Shown piece by piece: positions 4,141-62,943 of a stretch of DNA of 64,000 bases; position 1 is the first letter of the stretch, and each line of letters opens with the position of its first letter. The stretch lies in the NCBI GenBank assembly GCA_964645765.1, contig CAZYBE010000001.1:7456-71455 (forward strand), read 5' to 3'. The notes below the pieces were generated by a model. That model was not told the origin of the DNA. It ran no database searches and saw only the letters and a program-made list of their open reading frames with translations. The DNA is from an uncultured Eubacteriales bacterium (GTDB taxonomy: Bacteria > Acidobacteriota > Aminicenantia > Aminicenantales > Aminicenantaceae). Both the position numbers and the translations under genes were made by a program.

Positions 4141-4172
4141 TAATGCGTGTTTTTTCACCACCCAGCCTGAGC
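4141..4172. repeat. 32-bp remnant of a family-1 repeat right end
   Basis: ttaatgcGTGTTTTttCAcCACCCAGCCTGAgc matches the right terminus of copy A (ttaatgca..gcgtgttttcaaaccacccagcctgatcc). It lies between two convergent genes. Confidence 0.6.
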
Positions 4173-4184
4173 TATATCTTTATA

Positions 4185-15560: not shown

Positions 15561-17492
15561 TTGAAAGCAAGGAGAATAGAACAAATCAGAAAATTTCTTT
15601 TCCTCAGCTTCACTCTTCTCTTTCTCCTCCTGCTCCAGGGAGAAAGCGGGGGGACTTTTCATCAGAGTCCTGGAATCCAGCAGAGGCAAAAAGACACCCT
15701 TTCAATCCGCCAGGAGGAAAAAAAGAACCCAGAGCGAAGGCAGCTTCGAGAGAACAAACTCAGCCAGAGGCTCAAGAATAAGCTTTCAGCCTGCCAGGAA
15801 AGCGACGCCGTCTTCAAAATATGGGTTTATTTCAAAGATAAAGGAATATTCTCTCAGTCAGCGCAAGGAAAAAAATTGGCAGAAATCCGCCAGAGCTTGG
15901 ACTGGCACTGCCGCTGGCGCCGCCTGAAAGTCCTCTCAGAAAGAAATATCGTTGATGAAGCGGATATTCCGCTTTTTTCATCTTATACAAAAAAAGTTGA
16001 ATCTCTGGCCAGACGGGTGAGGGCTCCCTCTCGCTGGCTCAATGCCCTGAGCGTCGAGGCTTGTCCCTCAGAAATCCAGGCCCTTTCCCAGCTTGAATTT
16101 GTGAGCAAAATCGACCTTGTCGCCTCATTCCAGCGCCACGAGCCTCTTTCTCCTTGCCCAGCAGACTCGGCTGAGCGAGAGCCAAGCAACCCGAACATCA
16201 ACTACGGCCGATCGTTTCTCCAGCTTGACCAGATCAATGTTCCCTACCTTCACCAGCTTGGCTACAGCGGAAGCGGTGTCCTGGTCTGCATGCTGGACGC
16301 AGGGTTCAGGAAAAGCCATGAAGTCTTCAGCAACGCGCACCTCGTCTCGGAATGGGACTTTGTCAACAATGACAACGATGTCCAGCAAAACCTTCTTGAC
16401 CCTAATGATTATTCCGACTCTCATGGAACCGCAACCTGGTCGCTGCTGGGAGGACATAAATTCGGCGAGCTCGTCGGACCTGCCTACGGAGCTGATTTTC
16501 TTCTGGCAAAAACAGAAACCGACAGATTCGAAAAGCCGATAGAGGAAGATTACTGGGTGGCTGGTATCGAATGGGCTGAGCGACTCGGCGCTGAAGTTGT
16601 CTCCTCTTCCCTGGGATACATAGACTGGTATACCTTTCAGGATATGGATGGAGGGACGGCTGTGACCACCAAGGCTGCCAACAGGGCTGCAACCCTGGGA
16701 GTGGTCGTGGTCAATGCTGCCGGGAATGAGCGGGGTAGCGCCTGGGGCCATATCATCGCTCCTGCGGATGGCTTTGACGTTATTGCTGTTGGGGCTGTGG
16801 ACTCTTCCGGCAAAATCTCCTCTTTCAGCTCACCAGGCCCGACATACGACGGCAGGACCAAGCCTGAGGTCTGCGCCTTAGGCGTTAACAACTGGATTGC
16901 GGGCAACAGGTCGGACGGCACAAGCACTTACGGCACAGGCTCTGGAACATCCTTCTCCACTCCCTTAGTGGCTGGCGTTGCAGCCTTGCTTCTTGAAATC
17001 CACCGCGACTGGACACCAGCTCAGGTACGCTCTGCCCTGCTCAGCTCTGCAAGCCGCAGCTCAAATCCTGATAACGACTACGGCTGGGGAATTGTCAATG
17101 CGGCTTCAGCCGCTAACATGGACCTTGCCCTGCTCAAGCTCCAGTCCACAGCTATCGATGATGATTCATCAGGCGCCAGCCTCGGCAACGGCAATGGACA
17201 AGTTGAAGCTGGAGAAACCATCGAGCTTCGTGTCAGCCTTGAAAATGAAGGCACGGCTACGGCTTATTCCCTTGAAGGGACTTTGAGTGCAACCAATCCT
17301 GAGGTGGTGATTGCCCATTCGAAGGTTGCATTCCCAGACCTTCCTCCTCTTTCCAGCCGATCAGCTCTTGAGCCCTTTGTGATAAGAATCCCGGCATATT
17401 ACCTTGGACATCATCTTGTCTTCCGCCTTCAAGCCAAAGGGCCAAACAGTCTGACTTTGTATGAAGCTATCAGAATTCCTATTACCCGCTGA
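15561..17492 (+). CDS. Secreted S8 family (subtilisin-like) serine peptidase
   Basis: Signal peptide; catalytic Asp ('VLVCMLDAGF'), His ('DSHGTATWSLLGG') and Ser ('GTSFSTPLVAGVAALL') motifs. Confidence 0.9.
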   Translation: MKARRIEQIRKFLFLSFTLLFLLLLQGESGGTFHQSPGIQQRQKDTLSIRQEEKKNPERRQLRENKLSQRLKNKLSACQESDAVFKIWVYFKDKGIFSQSAQGKKLAEIRQSLDWHCRWRRLKVLSERNIVDEADIPLFSSYTKKVESLARRVRAPSRWLNALSVEACPSEIQALSQLEFVSKIDLVASFQRHEPLSPCPADSAEREPSNPNINYGRSFLQLDQINVPYLHQLGYSGSGVLVCMLDAGFRKSHEVFSNAHLVSEWDFVNNDNDVQQNLLDPNDYSDSHGTATWSLLGGHKFGELVGPAYGADFLLAKTETDRFEKPIEEDYWVAGIEWAERLGAEVVSSSLGYIDWYTFQDMDGGTAVTTKAANRAATLGVVVVNAAGNERGSAWGHIIAPADGFDVIAVGAVDSSGKISSFSSPGPTYDGRTKPEVCALGVNNWIAGNRSDGTSTYGTGSGTSFSTPLVAGVAALLLEIHRDWTPAQVRSALLSSASRSSNPDNDYGWGIVNAASAANMDLALLKLQSTAIDDDSSGASLGNGNGQVEAGETIELRVSLENEGTATAYSLEGTLSATNPEVVIAHSKVAFPDLPPLSSRSALEPFVIRIPAYYLGHHLVFRLQAKGPNSLTLYEAIRIPITR

Positions 17493-17498
17493 AAAAAA

Positions 17499-17555
17499 GC
17501 AGCGTGCTCCGAACCTCCAAACCCTCACCCAAATCTCGGAATGAGGGATGCTTCC
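17499..17555. repeat. 57-bp terminal fragment of a family-1 (B-subtype) repeat
   Basis: Near-identical to the right end of the 21848..22132 element (gcagcgtgctccgaacctccaaaccctcaccca...gg(g)atgcttcc). Lies between two convergent genes. Confidence 0.7.
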
Positions 17556-18556: not shown

Positions 18557-18611
18557 TCTGGACAAAGTCAAGGCTGCGGATTTACTGCGTTGCCAACTCA
18601 AAGATATTAAG

Positions 18612-18845
18612 GGATCAGGCTGGGTGGTGAGAAAACCGTTTGAATAGCTCAGACAGCGTGGCTCGTCAGCACGCCGCTTTTGCCCCAGCGAGTCAAAAGC
18701 GGCTTGGTTCAAGGCTTCGCTCTCCTCTCCCTTCGGTTGAGGAACCATGCCCACTCAGCCTTTCACACGGCCTTCTCGCCACTCTGCCTTCGCCTTCTCT
18801 GTTTAATGCAAAGCCTGCGTGTTTTCAAACCACCCAGCCTGATCC
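18612..18845. repeat. Family-1 structured intergenic repeat, full-length copy A (234 bp, MITE-like)
   Basis: Terminal inverted repeats ggatcaggctgggtgg / ccacccagcctgatcc. Internal conserved hairpin gccgcttttgccccagcgagtcaaaagcggc and core ggcttcgctctcctctcccttcgg..gaggaaccatgcccactcagcc. Confidence 0.85.
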
Positions 18846-18851
18846 ATAATT

Positions 18852-20363: not shown

Positions 20364-21845
20364 CTAAGAAAGTGGCCTGTCCTTTTTTCCCCATTTCTCA
20401 ATAGCTAAACCAGCGATAAATCCCACGAGGCCTAATCCCAGACCGTAGGGAACAGAGAAAGGCCAGGGAATCCAGTTCAGCGGAAGGAGCTTCATCTCAG
20501 ACAAAAACCCGAGTGAAGAAAAGCCTCCTCCAAAAACAAGGCTCAGAAGGCCGGCAAGGGGAAATTTTCTCTTAATAAAAATCATAGCCATGCCTGGAAT
20601 AAAAAGACCTTCTGCCATAATTTCCGAGGCAAGGCCGAGGGTTTTCAAGATACTCTGAAACCTGGCCGCAACGAGAAAAGCGAGCCCGCCGACAAGCAAA
20701 GTCGAGAGGCGACTGGCAAAAATAATCCCTTTTTCCCTGCTTAAAGGAAAGAGTTGCTGCCAGACATCTCGAGTCAGAGAAAGCGCCCCGGTGTTGATGG
20801 CTGCAGCCATGGTTGACATAATTGCTGCTACCACACCCACAAAAAGAACTCCTCTTAAAAAGAATCCGCTGCTCGAGGAGATGATCTCAGAGTAGAGAGG
20901 GTTGGCAAGTTTTCGAGAAGCAAAGAGGGGCAGAGAGAGCATGCCGGTCAAAACCACAGTCCCGTAGAGGAGGAAAAAAGTCACCGATGCAGAAAAGAGG
21001 GCTCCCCGGGCATCCTGGACGGTGCGAGCGGCTTTAATTCTCTGCCAGGCAATCGGCGAGATGGTCCAGGCCAGAGTGAAAGAAAGAACAATCAGGATGT
21101 TCTTTTTGAAGTCAAAGAAAAAATTGAAATACTGGCTTTTGCCTAGTCTTGAAGCGAGGAGAGAAACATCTTTTAGTGATGAAAGGCCGAAAAGAAAAAA
21201 GAGAAGGCTGAAAAGGCCGGCGACAATGAGAAAAAACTTGATACCGTCGGCAATGGCGACAGAACGAAGGCCTCCGAAGATAGAATAGATGAGCACCACA
21301 GCTGTTCCTAAAGCCAAGCTCTTGAGGTAAGACGTGCCCAAGAAGGACTTCAAGAAATGGCCGATGGCGACCATCTGGGATGCGGCCAGGACCGCCATGT
21401 ACCAGATGACCAGCAGCGAAGCAAGATGACGAACAGCCCGGCCATAGCGCATCTCGACCAGGTCGGGCAGGGAGACTAAGGGCAGCTGCCGGATCGGCCG
21501 GACTAAAAAAAGGCCGAGAAAAAGGACTGTCAGCATGGCGGGCACTCCCATAATCCAGAATGAGCTCAAACCTGCTTCATAGGCCTGGTCAGAAGAGACC
21601 AGAGTCGATGTTGCCCCGAACCAGGAAGCACAAAGCGTCAAATAGACTAAAAAGCCAGAAAGATTTCTGGAGGCGAGAAAAAAATCGACAATATCCTTCA
21701 TCCTCTTTGAGAAAATGAAGCTCATGAGGAGGAGAAAGGCGATGTAGGCAAGAAAAATAAAGAAAAACTCAACCTTCACAGCGCCACTTATAGCAAAAAC
21801 CCCTCTTGCTTGGCAAATTATTTCAATTTTTGGAGACCATTTCAT
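20364..21845 (-). CDS. Sodium:solute symporter (SSF) family transporter
   Basis: 493 aa and about 13 TM segments. N-terminal 'DFFLASRNLSGF' is typical of SSF proteins. Confidence 0.75.
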   Translation of the reverse strand: MKWSPKIEIICQARGVFAISGAVKVEFFFIFLAYIAFLLLMSFIFSKRMKDIVDFFLASRNLSGFLVYLTLCASWFGATSTLVSSDQAYEAGLSSFWIMGVPAMLTVLFLGLFLVRPIRQLPLVSLPDLVEMRYGRAVRHLASLLVIWYMAVLAASQMVAIGHFLKSFLGTSYLKSLALGTAVVLIYSIFGGLRSVAIADGIKFFLIVAGLFSLLFFLFGLSSLKDVSLLASRLGKSQYFNFFFDFKKNILIVLSFTLAWTISPIAWQRIKAARTVQDARGALFSASVTFFLLYGTVVLTGMLSLPLFASRKLANPLYSEIISSSSGFFLRGVLFVGVVAAIMSTMAAAINTGALSLTRDVWQQLFPLSREKGIIFASRLSTLLVGGLAFLVAARFQSILKTLGLASEIMAEGLFIPGMAMIFIKRKFPLAGLLSLVFGGGFSSLGFLSEMKLLPLNWIPWPFSVPYGLGLGLVGFIAGLAIEKWGKKDRPLS

Positions 21846-21847
21846 TA

Positions 21848-22132
21848 TCCGTGATATTAAAACGACTGCGAGGGTGAGGGTTTGGAGGTGAGGAGTCCCC
21901 TATGATGCTCAGGCCAGCGGGCTCAAAAACACGCAACTTTTGCCCCAGCGAGGCAAAAGTTGCTCGGTTTCAGGCTTCGCTCTCCTCTCCTTCGGAGAGG
22001 AACCATGCCCGCTCAGCCTTCAAACGATTTTTTCACCCGTTGGCCTTCGCAGGTACTATTTTCCTCGCTGGGGAAAATCAGCGTGCTCCGAACCTCCAAA
22101 CCCTCACCCATATCACGGAATTAGGGATGCTT
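21848..22132. repeat. Family-1 repeat, B-subtype copy (about 285 bp) in a divergent promoter region
   Basis: Inverted termini tccgtgatat...gagggtgagggtttggaggt / acctccaaaccctcaccc...atatcacgga. Contains the same conserved hairpin (cgcaacttttgccccagcgaggcaaaagttgc) and core, with a perfect ctcctctcc-TTCG-gagagga hairpin. Confidence 0.85.
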
Positions 22133-22178
22133 CCTGGCCTTCGCCATCACAATCTTAATATGCTATAATTCAGCTGCG

Positions 22179-26839: not shown

Positions 26840-26961
26840 GGGTCAGGCTGGATGCTTGAGAAAACCGTTTGAAGGCTGCGGCTTAATGGCTCGAAAACAC
26901 GCCATTCAGCCTCCGCAAGTGGGCAAAGCCTGCGTGTTTTCGAAAGCATCCAGCCTGACCC
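26840..26961. repeat. Family-1 repeat, internally deleted copy C (122 bp)
   Basis: TIRs gggtcaggctggatgctt / aagcatccagcctgaccc. Subterminal segments match copy A (gagaaaaccgtttgaa ... gcaaagcctgcgtgttttc) but the central core is absent. Confidence 0.8.
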
Positions 26962-29517: not shown

Positions 29518-29579
29518 CTTTATCCCTATTTATTTCCTGAACACCGTCACGCCGTTAATATAAACATAATATTTCATCT

Positions 29580-29694
29580 ATCATCGCGAGGAGCGGAGCG
29601 ACGTGGCGATCTCATCAAACTAAGAGATTGCCACGCCCTTCGGGCTCGCAATGACAGGCTCATCACCACGCTCCCTCTGGTCGCTCGCCATGAC
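29580..29694. repeat. Family-2 palindromic hairpin element (composite, 115 bp) in the pyrH-frr intergenic region
   Basis: Arms aTCATCGCGAGGagcggagcgaCGTGGCGATCTCAT / GAGATTGCCACGccCTTCGggCTCGCAATGAC, plus a third related arm. Confidence 0.8.
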
Positions 29695-29721
29695 TATGTA
29701 ACAAAATTCATTGCGTCTATA

Positions 29722-37486: not shown

Positions 37487-37516
37487 TTCTTTTCTTTGTC
37501 TCTCAGAGATTAAATT

Positions 37517-37864
37517 TGGAGGCGGCGGGAATCGAACCCGCGTCCGAAGACATTCAACACGAGGCTTCTACATGCATATCCTCTCCTTCAATCTCGTTCT
37601 GCAGCGTCCGAAGAGGAGGGACACAGCCGAACCAGCCCCGATGGAACTTCGCTTGCCAGGCCCAGGACCAACCCGGCTTGCTATCCCGCTTGTCGACGTT
37701 TCTCAAGCGCCGCAGGAGAGCACTTGAAAACCGGCATGCCTATTCTTTAGGCAGCAACAGGCAGAGTTTCTGCGCTTAGTTTTTTTTCCACCGTTTAACG
37801 AGGTGGGTGGGACCTCGACATGCCGCCTTTGTCTCATTGTCTCCGTCGAATCCTGTTCGCCCCC
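37517..37864 (-). ncRNA. ssrA: tmRNA (transfer-messenger RNA)
   Basis: 5' GGGGGCGAACAGGATTCGACGG and 3' tRNA-like end ...GGACGCGGGTTCGATTCCCGCCGCCTCCA. An internal reading frame ends ...GAA ACT CTG CCT GTT GCT GCC TAA, giving a tag that ends ...ETLPVAA. CCA is not encoded. Confidence 0.9.
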
Positions 37865-37960
37865 ATAACTCAAGCTAAGATTATATTTTGACCTGAAATC
37901 TTTGTCAACACATTGAATTTCAAAGGAACGATCTTTCTTTCCGTGGTGAAAAGCCTCGTT

Positions 37961-38113
37961 ATGGATCAGGCTGGGTGTCTCGAAGACACGCCGCTTTTGC
38001 CCCAGCGAGTCAAAAGCGGCTCGATTCCAGGCTTCGCTCTCCTCTCCCTTCGGTCGAGGAACCATGCCCGCTCAGCCCTCCATACGGTCTTCTCAACACC
38101 CAGCCTGATCCAT
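37961..38113. repeat. Family-1 repeat, copy D (about 153 bp), adjacent to the tmRNA 5' end
   Basis: Perfect 17-bp TIRs atggatcaggctgggtg / cacccagcctgatccat. Conserved hairpin and core. Confidence 0.85.
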
Positions 38114-38165
38114 TTCATACCACGAATTTGCGGATTCTTCTAATTTTAAATATTAAAAACGAATT

Positions 38166-39301: not shown

Positions 39302-39337
39302 GAGATTGCCACGCTCCCTTCGGGAGCTCGCAATGAC
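39302..39337. repeat. Family-2 element, half copy (right arm only) next to tRNA-Asp
   Basis: GAGATTGCCACGctCCCTTCGGGagCTCGCAATGAC matches the right arm of the 29580 element. The UUCG-capped mini-hairpin is preserved. Confidence 0.7.
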
Positions 39338-40905: not shown

Positions 40906-41056
40906 GGGGCTCAGGCTAAGCTGTGAGAAAACACGCAGCTTTTGTCCCGGCGAGACAAAAGCTGCTCGGTTTCAGGCTTCGCTCTCCTCTCCCTTCGGTC
41001 GAGGAACCATGCCCGCTCAGCCCTCAAACGGTTTTCTCACAGCTTAGCCTTCGCCC
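40906..41056. repeat. Family-1 repeat, copy E (about 151 bp) in a divergent promoter region
   Basis: TIRs ggctaagctgtgagaaaac / gttttctcacagcttagcc (19 bp perfect). The hairpin carries compensatory changes (cgcagcttttgtcccggcgagacaaaagctgc), and the conserved core is present. Confidence 0.85.
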
Positions 41057-48529: not shown

Positions 48530-48557
48530 TACACGGCAAGATTTGATGTAAATATAT

Positions 48558-48641
48558 GTCATCGCGAGGCGCGAAGCGCCGTGGCGATCTCATTAAATAA
48601 ATAATGAGATGGCCACGCTCCTTTCAGGAGCTCGCCATGAA
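48558..48641. repeat. Family-2 palindromic hairpin element (84 bp) between the SDR and cupin genes
   Basis: GTCATCGCGAGGcgcgaagcgcCGTGGCGATCTCAT-loop-ATGAGATGGCCACGctcctttcaggagCTCGCCATGA. The inner mini-hairpins show compensatory changes relative to copy 1. Confidence 0.8.
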
Positions 48642-48688
48642 AATATAACAAATTTTATTGCATATATAATAGCTAAAGGAAGGATCAG

Positions 48689-57530: not shown

Positions 57531-57712
57531 AGGTGTTGGGAGATAGCCTTGCTCCCAATCGGATTTTTAACGCCATCTCCATTCGCTCTTCTCGGCGGCT
57601 GCGTAACTCACTTCGTTCAGACATACTCGCCGCCCGACTTCGTCGGATTCCCTCGAAGAGCGAACTCCGATGGCTAAATCCTCAATGGTCGCTACGGCTA
57701 TCTCCCAACACC
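57531..57712. repeat. Family-3 palindromic element (182 bp) in the ALDH/murA divergent region
   Basis: Perfect 18-bp TIRs aggtgttgggagatagcc / ggctatctcccaacacct, with internal nested inverted repeats (ccatctccattcgctcttc / gaagagcgaactccgatgg). Confidence 0.75.
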
Positions 57713-59597: not shown

Positions 59598-60463
59598 ACA
59601 ATATCTCTATAATCGGCGCCGGGAGGCTGGGGACATCGCTGGCCTCTGCACTTGGAAAGAAAGGATACAGCATAAAAGCACTCTCTTGCAAAAAAAGTTC
59701 TTCGGCAAAAGAGAGCCAAAAAATCGTCGGAAAAGGCAAGGCTCTGACCGATAATGTCCGAGCGGCAAGGCTCGGAGATTTAGTCTTTCTGTGTCTGCCG
59801 GATGAAGAGATTGAGAAAGTCGCCGCGCAACTGGCAAAGTCTAATATCGATTGGTCGAAAAAGCTTGTCTTCCACTGTTCAGGTCTCCTTCCTTCAAAAA
59901 TCCTCAAGCCCTTAAAGGACAAGGGAGCCTTGATAGCTTCCTTCCATCCTGTCCAGTCCTTTGCCCAAAAAAAAACCGAGCCGGCAGACTTCAAGAGCGT
60001 CTATTTTGGACTCGAGGGATGCAGCAAGGCTCTGACTTCGGCTCGAAAGATTGTACGGAAGCTCGGCGGTCATCCTTTCATTCTCAAGGCGAAAGACAAA
60101 GCCATTTACCATTCAGCCTGCAGCATAGCCTCCAACTTTCTGGTTGTGCTTTTAGATATGGCCGTCTCCTTGCTCAAGCAAACAGGCTTGAATGAAGAAA
60201 AAGCCTTCCAAGTCCTTCTGCCCTTAGTTCAAGGGACTTTACACAATGTAAAAAAATTTAACATGGGCACGTCTCTGACCGGCCCTGTCATCAGAGGAGA
60301 CCAGAAAACTGTAAACAGCCATCTTAAAGCTCTCCGTGCTTTTCCTTCCTATCCTGAAACATACCGGAAGCTGGCTGAGCAGGCCTTGGAAATAGCAAGA
60401 AGAGAAAAAAGATTGTCTTCGCAAAAAATCAGGGCAATGAAAGCCCTGCTCCAAGAAAGATAA
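59594..60463 (+). CDS. Rossmann-fold NAD(P)-binding protein (DUF2520/ProC-like)
   Basis: 'ISIIGAGRLGTSLASAL' dinucleotide-binding motif; ATGA overlap with the upstream gene. Confidence 0.6.
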   Translation: MNNISIIGAGRLGTSLASALGKKGYSIKALSCKKSSSAKESQKIVGKGKALTDNVRAARLGDLVFLCLPDEEIEKVAAQLAKSNIDWSKKLVFHCSGLLPSKILKPLKDKGALIASFHPVQSFAQKKTEPADFKSVYFGLEGCSKALTSARKIVRKLGGHPFILKAKDKAIYHSACSIASNFLVVLLDMAVSLLKQTGLNEEKAFQVLLPLVQGTLHNVKKFNMGTSLTGPVIRGDQKTVNSHLKALRAFPSYPETYRKLAEQALEIARREKRLSSQKIRAMKALLQER

Positions 60464-61373
60464 CCTCCTCTTCAAGCTCGATGCCGAACTCTTCCTTCAC
60501 CCGCCTCTTGAGTTCCTGGGCAAGGCGGCGAACATCCTGGGCTGAAGCATTCCCTTGGTTAATGATGAAATTCGCGTGGCCCGGATAGACAAGCGCTCCT
60601 CCTACCCGCATATTCTTCGCACCAACTTTTTCCAGATAATAGCCAGCAGGAACTTTCTTTCCGTCCGGAAGGACGACGTTCTTGAAATAGCTCCCGGCAT
60701 AGGCTGTCCCTTCTGGGGGATGCTTTTCCCTGCGAACTTCCAAATTGCCCTCAACCTTCGCTTTTATCTTCTCTCTTTCCCCTTCATCAAGCTCAAAAAC
60801 AGCCTGCAAGAGGATTTCATGCCTTTTCTTGAGAATGCTCTGGCGGTAACCGAACTCGAAATAATCTCTTTTGACTCTGACCTGCTCACCTTTTTGATTG
60901 AGAAGCAGAGCTTCTTTTAAAAAATCCCCGATGCTTTGGTCGAAGGCGCCAGCATTGCCAAAGACAGCCCCGCCGATTGTCCCTGGAATTCCCGCTAAAA
61001 ATTCAAACCCGGTTAGCTCTTCTTTTATCGAAAGTTGAAGCACATCACTCAAAAAGCAGCCAGAGAAAGTTTCTATCTCTGTTTTACGCCTGAGTTCCTT
61101 TCCGGCTACCGCGTTTTTTACAATCAGGCCAGGGAATCCATCATCATCGAACAAAAGGTTATTCCCCCCTCCGATAAGAAAATAAGGCATGGAGGTCGAG
61201 CGCGCCAAAAGAATCGAGGCCACAAGTTCCTGGATTATTGAAGCTTCAAAAAAATAGTCGGCTTTGCCGCCGATTCTAAAGTTTGAATGATCCTTAAGAG
61301 ATACAGATTCTTCTAAGGGCTTGCCAATCTTATCCAGAAAAACAGCGGGAAAATCTGCTCTTCTGTCAGCCAT
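60429..61373 (-). CDS. murB: UDP-N-acetylenolpyruvoylglucosamine reductase
   Basis: FAD-binding 'FRIGGKADYF...LIGGGNNLL' and the C-terminal MurB domain. Confidence 0.9.
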   Translation of the reverse strand: MADRRADFPAVFLDKIGKPLEESVSLKDHSNFRIGGKADYFFEASIIQELVASILLARSTSMPYFLIGGGNNLLFDDDGFPGLIVKNAVAGKELRRKTEIETFSGCFLSDVLQLSIKEELTGFEFLAGIPGTIGGAVFGNAGAFDQSIGDFLKEALLLNQKGEQVRVKRDYFEFGYRQSILKKRHEILLQAVFELDEGEREKIKAKVEGNLEVRREKHPPEGTAYAGSYFKNVVLPDGKKVPAGYYLEKVGAKNMRVGGALVYPGHANFIINQGNASAQDVRRLAQELKRRVKEEFGIELEEEVIFLGAGLSLP

Positions 61374-61425
61374 TTGTATTATTCTATATGACCTTCACCT
61401 AAATTTCCAAATATTCTCTATTTAA

Positions 61426-61611
61426 GGGGAAGATCCTAAATTCCGTGATAATCATAAAATTGCAGCGGGGGTCCTGGCACGGCGTGCTCCCCGTCCGTCC
61501 TCGCTGCACCCATCCCCCCGTGGGGAACCCCTGCAGCTGCGGGCGTTGCGGGGAGCACGCCGCGCCACCCCAATGCTGGTCATTGGCTATCACGGAATTT
61601 AGGATGCTATC
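61426..61611. mobile_element. Family-1 (B-subtype) MITE-like element flanked by an 8-bp target-site duplication CTATTTAA
   Basis: Imperfect TIRs of about 25 bp (ggggaagatcctaaattccgtgata / tatcacggaatttaggatgctatcc). Direct repeats CTATTTAA lie at 61418-61425 and 61612-61619. The GC-rich, highly self-complementary interior has no ORF. Confidence 0.75.
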
Positions 61612-61752
61612 CTATTTAAACATGAATAAGATCTTGGCATATTTTTTGCTTGCTAGATTTATGAGTTTAGATTTTTGGCTTCTTGAATCTCTGATATTGA
61701 CATTTTTTTCAGAGAAGGCTATTATGCAAAAAATTTCATGCGAGGTCTAAGA

Positions 61753-62943
61753 ATGAAAAAAACGGGGCTGATAGCTTTAGCATTAATCCTTTTTATTTCT
61801 TATCTACCGGCTCAAACCGAGACTGCCAATGAAGATTACGTCAAAGCGATGACAACCGCAGACCGGGCTCAGAGGGCTAATCTTCTCAGAGAGTATCTGA
61901 CGAAATATGCCGGGAAAGGAACCCAGTACGAGAATTATGCCAACGGCAATCTCTGCCTCCTTGCTTATCAAGGAAAGACAGCCGAAGAAACCATAAATTA
62001 TGGCGAAAAGGCTCTGGCTATGGGCGGCCTGGATGACCTCATTAAGTGTCAAATTTTAATCACTCTTTCAGGAATTTACGGCGAGCGCGGACAGAACTTG
62101 GAAAAAGCGAAAAGCTATGCTTCCCAAGCTGCGGAGATCGCAAAGGCCAGCAGAGGCAAAGAATCTGAAGAGACAGGTCGGGCTTCATGGGAAAAGCTTT
62201 TAGGCTATGCTTACTTTGCCCAGGGACAGGCCTTTGACAAGGCTAAGGACGCTAAAAGCGCCGTAGGCCCCTACATAGAGTCCTACAAAATCTTGAATGA
62301 CAAGCAAATCTTGATTAATCTGAAAAAAGTGGGAAAGACGCTCTATGAATTCAAGTTTTACAATGAAGCGGAAAAAGCTTTTGCAATTGTGGCCGAGGTT
62401 TTTAAGGATTTTGAAAGTTACAGCCTCTACGCCAGGATCCTTCACCGGACAGGGAAGAAAAATGAAGCTCTCAAGTACTATAAAATGGCCTATATGAAAC
62501 AGAAGAGCGGGGAAACTGCCTTTAACATCGGAATCATCGAAGCTGAAAACGCCAAATCAAACCCTGCACTCGCTCAGGAGGCCCTCCATTATTTTCTCGA
62601 TGCCAGCTTATTATCGGCTGCCCATTCGCAAAAAGCGATGGGACTCGCCGAAGACCTTTTCTTCAACACCTTAAACAAAGACCTCAAATACAATGAAAAA
62701 GCCAAAGAACTCCAGGAAAGAACCGCAAAACTGGAAGAGCTCACCAAAGCCTTTAACGAAAAATTCGGGGAAAAGAACGAAGAGGACTTGACAGAAGCAG
62801 AAAAAAAGGAGATGCAGAATCTGAACGCTCAGATTGAATCCGAAAAAAAGGCCATCCAAAAACTCGGTGATGAGCAGAAGCTCGCTCTGGACAAGTGGAA
62901 TGTCCAGATCGAAGAGGCAAAGAAAAGATTAGGCATCAAATAG
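61753..62943 (+). CDS. Secreted TPR-like / coiled-coil hypothetical protein
   Basis: Signal peptide 'MKKTGLIALALILFISYLPAQ' and a C-terminal Lys/Glu-rich coiled coil. Confidence 0.5.
   Translation: MKKTGLIALALILFISYLPAQTETANEDYVKAMTTADRAQRANLLREYLTKYAGKGTQYENYANGNLCLLAYQGKTAEETINYGEKALAMGGLDDLIKCQILITLSGIYGERGQNLEKAKSYASQAAEIAKASRGKESEETGRASWEKLLGYAYFAQGQAFDKAKDAKSAVGPYIESYKILNDKQILINLKKVGKTLYEFKFYNEAEKAFAIVAEVFKDFESYSLYARILHRTGKKNEALKYYKMAYMKQKSGETAFNIGIIEAENAKSNPALAQEALHYFLDASLLSAAHSQKAMGLAEDLFFNTLNKDLKYNEKAKELQERTAKLEELTKAFNEKFGEKNEEDLTEAEKKEMQNLNAQIESEKKAIQKLGDEQKLALDKWNVQIEEAKKRLGIK

Follow-up and report, generated by a model that had tools for sequence, protein, structure and literature searches.

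A recent MITE insertion upstream of murB in an uncultured Aminicenantes bacterium and its probable mobilization by a promoter-targeting, ISKra4-like transposase

Introduction

How did a GC-rich hairpin of 185 bp come to lie just upstream of murB, the gene for UDP-N-acetylmuramate dehydrogenase, in an uncultured Aminicenantes bacterium, and which enzyme put it there? The hairpin belongs to a stretch of 64,000 nucleotides of contig CAZYBE010000001.1, called the window throughout, to which all coordinates refer unless another locus is named. An earlier note on this DNA had read the hairpin as a MITE, or miniature inverted-repeat transposable element, of 186 bp, flanked by an 8-bp target-site duplication, and had pointed to an hAT-, ISL3- or IS1595-like transposase as its mobilizer. 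Here we conclude that the 185-bp element is a genuine, fairly recent MITE insertion, and that the non-autonomous family to which it belongs retains the promoter-homing rule of ISKra4-type transposases, which place their elements 16 bp upstream of sigma-70-type −35 boxes. This spacing was missed in the earlier note. The transposase that moved the window copy is probably of the ISKra4-like type, and the grounds for this view, as well as those against it, are set out below.

The element and its terminus family

The insertion consists of the following parts.

61427..61611, no strand assigned: MITE ('B subtype'), 185 bp, a non-coding near-palindrome forming one long GC-rich hairpin
61427..61452, plus strand: left terminal inverted repeat, GGGAAGATCCTAAATTCCGTGATAAT, with a perfect 18-nt core at 61433-61450
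61586..61611, minus strand: right terminal inverted repeat, reading GATAGCATCCTAAATTCCGTGATAGC on the minus strand, with its perfect 18-nt core at 61588-61605
61418..61426, plus strand: left copy of the 9-bp target-site duplication, CTATTTAAG; the same 9-mer occurs once in the empty site of two relatives (L114 and L115)
61612..61620, plus strand: right copy of the duplication, CTATTTAAA, with one mismatch, at the last base

The identical octamers CTATTTAA on which the earlier note was built were located at 61418-61425 and 61612-61619 and occur nowhere else in the 64-kb window. They are not flush with the perfect 18-nt repeat, from which 7 nt on the left and 6 nt on the right set them apart. 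Within that repeat, ATCCTAAATTCCGTGATA (61433-61450) pairs at 18 of 18 positions with 61588-61605, and the imperfect repeats around this core extend to about 25 bp, in line with what had been described before. As a terminus pattern, ATCCTAAATTCCGTGATA has three matches in the window against 0.05 expected. The GC-rich, self-complementary interior is equally real: either strand folds as a single hairpin, at −111.6 and −113.4 kcal/mol (z = −9.3 and −9.4 against dinucleotide shuffles). The sole open reading frames (ORFs) over the 185 bp, of 64 and 101 amino acids, are low-complexity read-through, and the element is within the usual bounds for a MITE, being shorter than about 600 bp and having no transposase coding capacity.

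What defines the exact ends is the family. Copies were drawn from related metagenome-assembled genomes (MAGs) and from one metagenome scan, which together gave 246 terminus matches in 152 loci, with 92 facing pairs; in the scan of related MAG contigs with the degenerate pattern ATCNCGGAATNNRGGATGCT, most of the 113 loci were chance matches and about 25, from 7 MAGs, were real. All copies have in common the core AAGCATCC[C/T]NAATTCCGTGAT, within the family consensus G[G/T]AAGCATCC[C/T]NAATTCCGTGAT, and the ends of the family have the form G[G/T]AAGCATCC..AATTCCGTGAT, the real ends lying 2 nt outside the AAGCATCC core. In about 77% of the ends, the two outermost bases are GG or GT, the elements ending in ...GCTTCC or ...GCTTAC. 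Among 79 non-redundant short pairs, 44 are flanked by a 9-bp direct repeat with at most one mismatch (27 perfect and 17 with one mismatch), against 0.08% in a control of mismatched left and right flank combinations. Identity of the two flanks at each position is 0.91-1.00 over exactly nine positions and falls to 0.14-0.27 just outside them. In this register, the window element begins with GGGAAGATCC... and ends with ...GGATGCTATC, which makes it 185 bp long and not 186, and its duplication, CTATTTAAG / CTATTTAAA, is 9 bp and not 8, with 8 of the 9 positions identical.

The terminus family comprises 89 short paired elements on unrelated contigs, and the interiors differ among subfamilies that have only their ends in common. 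About ten full-length copies, likewise on unrelated contigs of metagenomes and MAGs, belong to the subfamily of the window element, with identities of 86-93% (L231, L191, L169, L221, L129, L173, L152, L206 and L066 among them). Further copies of this subfamily (L195, L138, L223, L233, L149 and L092) are split by extra DNA at the hairpin apex, at about element position 98/99, which suggests nested insertions or a modular, variable centre.

An empty site in close relatives

The earlier note had proposed as its own test a search for an empty site, in which the target is present just once, and such a site exists. P0006, with 97% identity the closest MurB homolog, is found on each of two independent contigs, L114 (Logan) and L115 (JGI), in both of which the spacer between murB and its neighbour measures 170 nt, against 364 nt in the window. 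By alignment and by BLAST, the two flanks of the window element are 98.8% and 97.3% identical to this relative, whose nucleotide identity is about 98%, and the match breaks exactly at 61426 / 61612; a single 9-mer, at positions 2448-2456 of L114, aligns to both window flanks. In window orientation, the empty site reads AATATTCT CTATTTAAG TATGAATAAG and the filled site ...CTATTTAAG (element) CTATTTAAA CATGAATAAG, so that the empty site itself holds the ninth base of the duplication, a G. L243, with a MurB of 92% identity, likewise lacks the element and has the single target copy, and the site upstream of murB is empty in relatives at 97%, 92% and 83% MurB identity. The best explanation, judged from these comparisons, and one that we consider very probable, is that the element was inserted after divergence from a lineage whose identity is still about 98%. 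That the element is a MITE, that its duplication is 9 bp and that it inserted recently can together be regarded as nearly certain.

The same spot has been visited by other members of the family. In L116, an end of the GT type, from a subfamily other than that of the window element, lies 15 bp from the same TTGGAA hexamer upstream of murB, and short remnants of the GKAAGCATCC type lie at the same place in L244 and L117; these truncated ends (L116:2400-2450, L244:150-190 and L117:2420-2470) stand beside murB genes whose products are 85-88% identical. The end of another subfamily in L116, together with the remnants in L244 and L117, thus speaks for at least two independent insertions at the murB promoter, as expected for targeted integration. 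As for the remnants themselves, either the promoter was hit more than once or one old insertion has decayed differently by lineage.

Autonomous insertion sequences with the same ends

A search for autonomous insertion sequences (ISs) with matching termini, also proposed in the earlier note, gave six full-length elements (L184, L209 and L239-L242) of 1379-1393 bp, each encoding a UPF0236 transposase of 422-426 amino acids. All their ends have the form G[G/T]AAGCAT..CCGTGATGG. In L184 and L209, the facing termini are 1381 and 1389 bp apart, core to core, and enclose one ORF each, of 423 and 425 amino acids, which match Pfam UPF0236 with E of about 1e-21 (75-78 bits against a cut-off of 24.3). 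Their best NCBIfam match is ISKra4 (NF033572; E = 2.9e-49 and 2.6e-54), followed by ISLre2 (E = 3.4e-43 and 1.3e-46; 148-160 bits against a cut-off of 200) and then ISH6, while IS256 is a weak match (E = 1e-5 to 3e-4). A protein search with these transposases returned 307 homologs, mainly on IS-sized contigs; the full IS of L239 sits on a contig of 881 kb. A perfect 9-bp duplication, TGTGTCTCT, flanks the IS of L241, and that of L239 is near-perfect. The ORFs beside the unpaired termini in L085, L091 and L074 are ordinary genes and no transposase was found there, and a tblastx comparison of the L239 and L240 contigs with the window revealed no shared genes.

One further arrangement was seen in a 1541-bp metagenome contig. 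At L242:62-116, the right end of an ISKra4-like IS, ...GGAAATGCTTAC, is followed by the 9 nt TAGCTTAGC, after which comes the left end of that IS, GGAAGCATTTCC...; this resembles a tandem dimer or else the junction formed in a circular intermediate. Circular transposition intermediates have been described for IS256 and ISLre2 (PMC3942029).

Promoter homing

The genes and promoter-like sites that frame the insertion are these.

60429..61373, minus strand: murB (UDP-N-acetylmuramate dehydrogenase), with homologs carrying Pfam FAD_binding_4 and MurB_C, the named ones from Aminicenantes
61381..61410, minus strand: promoter-like site of murB, TTGGAA (61410-61405), an 18-nt spacer and TAGAAT (61386-61381), matching 9 of 12 in a consensus scan
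61697..61725, plus strand: promoter-like site TTGACA-17-TATTAT of the divergent 401-amino-acid gene, kept in all relatives and intact, with the right end of the element 85 bp away

The element thus lies between two divergent genes, murB on the minus strand and the 401-amino-acid gene (61738-62943) on the plus strand. The first base of the −35-like TTGGAA is exactly 16 bp from its left end, and this distance turns out to be the rule of the family. Outward flanks of MITEs and ISs were collected into a non-redundant set of 206, with positions counted from the element end, and their base frequencies spell TTGACA at 17-22 and TAnnnT at 40-45. Matches to TTGACA in at least five of six bases start at position 17 in 35 of the 206 flanks, against 0-7 at each other offset (about 2 being typical), and when a −10 box is required 16-18 nt downstream, 26 start at position 17 and at most 6 elsewhere. 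Of 158 ends of paired elements, 40 have a promoter-like site matching at least 9 of 12 at the 16-bp distance, and shifting the register lowers this count to 1-4.

The spacing is coupled to an asymmetry of the ends: 29 of 54 GT ends are promoter-proximal and 4 of 69 GG ends. In a subfamily of 198 bp, whose GT end keeps one position with respect to the interior, every promoter is found on the GT side (9/14 against 0/14). The full-length ISs behave in the same way, five of the six having TTGACA, TTGAAA, TTGACT, TTGACT or TTGATT at 17-22 from the GT end, with examples upstream of rpsP and ssb.

Such behaviour is known from the relatives of these transposases. Guerillot et al. 2014 (PMC3942029) unite IS256, ISH6, TnGBS/ISLre2 and ISAzba1/ISMich2/ISKra4 in one Mutator-like superfamily, with inverted repeats of 18-39 bp ending in a terminal C and direct repeats of 8-9 bp. 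For TnGBS-type elements, the insertion point is 15-17 bp upstream of the sigmaA −35 box, with a promoter peak 16 bp from the end of the inverted repeat, and the same targeting was found in ISLre2 and in 13 ISs of the ISKra4 group, while promoters do not guide the insertion of IS256, which is random in this respect (PMC3942029). Entries for the ISKra4 group in the supplement of that paper give a direct repeat of 9, and the paper ties promoter targeting to a signature of the transposase, a conserved Asp between domains N1 and N2. In the present family, the peak at 16 bp falls within the 13-17 bp upstream of sigmaA −35 boxes that characterize the ISKra4 group, the direct repeats are 9 bp, and the inverted repeats are within 18-39 bp and have the terminal C. 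The fixed 16-bp rule probably explains the seat of the window copy upstream of murB.

At the locus itself, TTGGAA-18-TAGAAT is also found in the empty relative L114, within a block conserved in all relatives, and would be the functional promoter of murB. The insertion site is the sole poorly conserved stretch between two conserved promoter blocks. Both core promoters are intact, with the element in the spacer between them, and this is probably the reason why the insertion has been tolerated. The −10-like TAGAAT ends 7 nt before the ATG of murB (61371-61386), so that the murB mRNA would be leaderless, or nearly so, if the promoter is real. A second promoter-like sequence, GTGCCA-18-TATGAT (9 of 12), was noticed in the left arm of the element, on the minus strand at 61451-61480; it is directed outward and could drive read-out transcription toward murB.

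Proposed mechanism and alternative explanations

We propose that the window element is a non-autonomous MITE mobilized in trans, an explanation that as a whole we hold to be very likely. Its ends of about 25 bp, G[G/T]AAGCATCC..AATTCCGTGAT with C as the 3′-strand terminal base, would serve as binding and cleavage sites for an ISKra4-like DDE transposase, a prokaryotic Mutator-like enzyme (Pfam UPF0236) that would come from a 1.38-1.39-kb IS elsewhere, outside the window. A staggered cut of 9 bp in the target would have produced the CTATTTAAG duplication, and integration would have been steered to a point 16 bp upstream of a sigma-70-type −35 hexamer, as with the ISKra4, ISLre2 and TnGBS transposases, the target here being the murB promoter-like TTGGAA-18-TAGAAT. 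The hairpin interior would have no function of its own. The joint claim, that an ISKra4-like transposase was the mobilizer and that promoter targeting accounts for the placement beside murB, we regard as probable.

Several observations weigh against this proposal. The transposases of the full ISs score 168-185 bits against ISKra4, below the curated equivalog cut-off of 205, and the MITE shares with these ISs the ends of about 25 bp and not the interior. No matching 9-mers flank the ISs of L184, L209, L240 and L242. No ISKra4-like transposase gene was found in the window, in agreement with the earlier note, nor in about 20 loci from related Aminicenantes MAGs. At the locus itself, the GG-type end of the window copy faces the murB promoter, which is the minor orientation of the family (4/69), and the supposed promoter is a match of 9 in 12 that implies the nearly leaderless transcript mentioned above. 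Moreover, an IS256-type remnant in L086 has a similar end, so that the ends alone cannot discriminate within the Mutator-like superfamily.

That remnant is the starting point for a rival view, in which the MITE was moved by an IS256-family enzyme of the classical Transposase_mut type. L086, from a Thermodesulfovibrio MAG, holds at 600-1464 a decayed, internally deleted IS whose 83-amino-acid ORF matches Pfam Transposase_mut with E = 1.8e-4, exactly at the cut-off, and whose end is ...ATCACGGAATTAGGGATGCTTCC; repeats of the IS256 family also resemble the present ends (ISDgi1, for example, with ...ACACGGAATTATTTACACTCCC), and IS256 duplications measure 8-9 bp (PMC3942029). An IS256-family partner, as L086 suggests, is nevertheless disfavoured by the intact ISKra4-like ISs and the promoter spacing: all six intact ISs with these ends are UPF0236/ISKra4-like, with IS256 as a weak secondary match, and the insertion of IS256 at random with respect to promoters is at odds with the sharp 16-bp spacing. 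The match in L086 is marginal and its element a wreck. A protein search with the 83-amino-acid fragment returned fragments and no full IS, and tblastn of the fragment against the related loci and the window was negative. We therefore consider an IS256-family mobilizer quite improbable. In a Nitrospiraceae MAG, four contigs (L026, L030, L034 and L062) are cut off about 125 nt into an end like that of L086. The hAT-, ISL3- or IS1595-like transposase of the earlier note fares worse still. It draws on the eight identical bases that flank the window element and on a faint, sub-threshold DDE_Tnp_ISL3 signal in one of the full-length transposases (E = 0.0054; 17 bits against 23), yet the duplication of the family is exactly 9 bp, with the ninth base G provided by the empty site, the ISs with these ends are UPF0236/ISKra4-like, and no ISL3, IS1595 or hAT protein lies beside any of the 246 terminus matches in the 152 loci. 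Such an origin is very improbable.

It is also worth asking whether selfish transposition explains the hairpin, or whether it is mainly a structured nucleic acid selected by the host (an RNA hairpin with a regulatory role, for example, or else a cruciform or an insulator upstream of promoters), its spread and conservation reflecting function. Its extreme stability on both strands, the 86-93% conservation of its interior across metagenomes and its systematic placement 16 bp upstream of −35 boxes would suit such a role, as would at least one double (compensatory) change in 8 of 64 predicted pairs (column pair 61/136, for example, has 7 A-U and 3 G-C). The RNAalifold covariation term, however, is unfavourable (+0.69), most pairs are invariant, and there is no net covariation support. 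Rfam at its gathering thresholds recognizes one transfer-messenger RNA (tmRNA) and two tRNAs in the window and no family at the element. Close relatives with otherwise identical promoters lack the element, the interiors of the subfamilies differ where the ends agree, and the remnants in L116, L244 and L117 suggest that copies decay as if neutral. The targeting already known for this family of transposases accounts for the promoter placement, which the full ISs show as well. A function selected by the host thus appears unlikely as the cause of the spread. Finally, chance alone would give an AT-rich 8-mer about 1.5 times per window, and the direct repeat beside a hairpin might be put down to coincidence or to an assembly artefact. 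This can be regarded as excluded, since 44 of 79 independent elements have the repeat in this register, the control giving 0.08%, empty sites are present in independent assemblies, and near-identical elements occur on many unrelated contigs. Our preferred explanation thus remains mobilization in trans by an ISKra4-like transposase.

Relation to known systems

MITEs and ISKra4-type promoter targeting are each already known, and what we describe is not a new kind of system. Closest is the ISKra4 group (p-MULT 4; PMC3942029), which the autonomous relatives resemble in their length of about 1.38-1.39 kb and their single UPF0236 transposase of 422-426 amino acids, and which the family as a whole resembles in its repeats of about 25 bp with terminal C, its 9-bp duplications and its position about 16 bp upstream of the −35 box. 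When the repeats were compared with ISAcas3 and ISAcce1 of that group, the ISAcce1 repeat (...TTCGCGGAAATTAAATGCACCC) was found to resemble the ...ATCACGGAATTTAGGATGCTTCC of the family. The window element differs in having no transposase, its interior being an unrelated GC-rich palindrome, and the transposases of its relatives score under the NCBI curated ISKra4 cut-off. Furthermore, ISKra4-group ISs with near-perfect repeats have promoters on either side (PMC3942029), whereas the present family is GT-biased. With TnGBS/ISLre2 (p-MULT 3), it shares the 16-bp peak from one repeat end, an oriented insertion tied to the asymmetry of the ends and duplications of 8-9 bp; however, ISLre2 is the second-best match here, TnGBS are large conjugative elements of streptococci, and the present hosts are Aminicenantes and other uncultured lineages. 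The IS256 family belongs to the same superfamily and has duplications of 8-9 bp, a similar repeat pattern (CACGGAATT...CC) and the L086 remnant in its favour, but its insertion is reported as random (PMC3942029) and the intact partners found here are not of IS256 type.

Classical bacterial MITEs (Correia/NEMIS, the Coxiella QMITE2, RUP and ERIC) are likewise short, non-coding, intergenic and multi-copy, with terminal repeats, target duplication and presence/absence polymorphism between strains, and the fold of the window element, at about −111 kcal/mol, is comparable to the −113 of QMITE2 (PMC10969869). They derive from other IS families, however, and no promoter-distance rule has been reported for them. 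A review of prokaryotic MITEs and a large-scale survey, both from 2024, mention no MITEs of IS256, ISKra4, ISLre2 or Mutator type, and nothing relevant on Aminicenantes MITEs or on ISKra4- or ISLre2-derived MITEs was found among open-access papers. The present promoter-homing MITE family appears to be undescribed.

What was an anonymous 'structured repeat' of uncultured Aminicenantes has become a mobile element with exact ends, a duplication, a verified empty site and a probable transposase family. Promoter-targeted integration, known so far for the transposase-carrying TnGBS, ISLre2 and ISKra4 elements, passes to non-autonomous derivatives, which far outnumber the ISs in the metagenomes examined. 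Under the 16-bp rule, each young copy marks a sigma-70-type promoter in lineages without mapped promoters, and filled and empty sites can serve as strain-level markers; the family also accounts for many of the contig breaks in Aminicenantes assemblies. A bolder reading can be put forward, which we consider unlikely: that this is one copy of a large cross-phylum MITE family (Aminicenantes, other Acidobacteriota, Nitrospirota and Thermodesulfobacteriota) in which homing has been kept, very stable GC-rich DNA in hairpin or cruciform form being put 16 bp upstream of the −35 box at housekeeping promoters such as those of murB, rpsP and ssb, and that hosts have co-opted these copies, as upstream promoter modules that are mobile. 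The elements could then act as insulators of divergent promoters, replace UP elements or regulator sites, or provide outward transcription. If this were true, the expression of core genes would be rewired between strains wherever a copy is present in one and absent from another.

Other copies and repeats in the window

The earlier note had also tied the termini to loci at 21848-22132 and 17499-17555, which is borne out by the third match to the terminus pattern and by the direct-repeat family D3. Both loci are listed here with their revised extents.

21832..22134, no strand assigned: composite copy from the same terminus family, older, its left end degenerate, with the right end ...ATCACGGAATTAGGGATGCTTCC and no intact target duplication
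17482..17555, plus strand: solo right-end fragment of the same family, ...CTCGGAATGAGGGATGCTTCC, in direct-repeat family D3, 88% identical to 22061-22134

In the composite copy, the ATCCTAAATTCCGTGATA-type terminus lies at 22111-22128 with two mismatches, and a hairpin repeat of an unrelated kind, the A type, is nested inside the copy at 21907-22050. Repeats of this A type are also found at 18610-18850, 26840-26961, 37960-38114, 40907-41056 and 4144-4182; their inverted termini are GGATCAGGCTGGGTG...GAGAAAAC, and copies 82-89% identical occur in the related MAG loci L013, L110 and L045. The one at 37960-38114 adjoins the tmRNA gene (37516-37864; Rfam RF00023, 169.7 bits).

A third MITE-like element, with termini GGTGTTGGGAGATAGCC / GGCTATCTCCCAACACC, lies between two genes at 57531-57712, and L037 carries a 92.5%-identical copy of it nested in a GKAAGCATCC-type MITE. 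Another short repeat family has two to three copies, at 29576-29721, 48554-48668 and 39309-39337, and follows the pattern CATCGCGAGG.GCG.AGCG.CGTGGCGATC ... CCACGCTCC....GG..GCTCGCCATGA.

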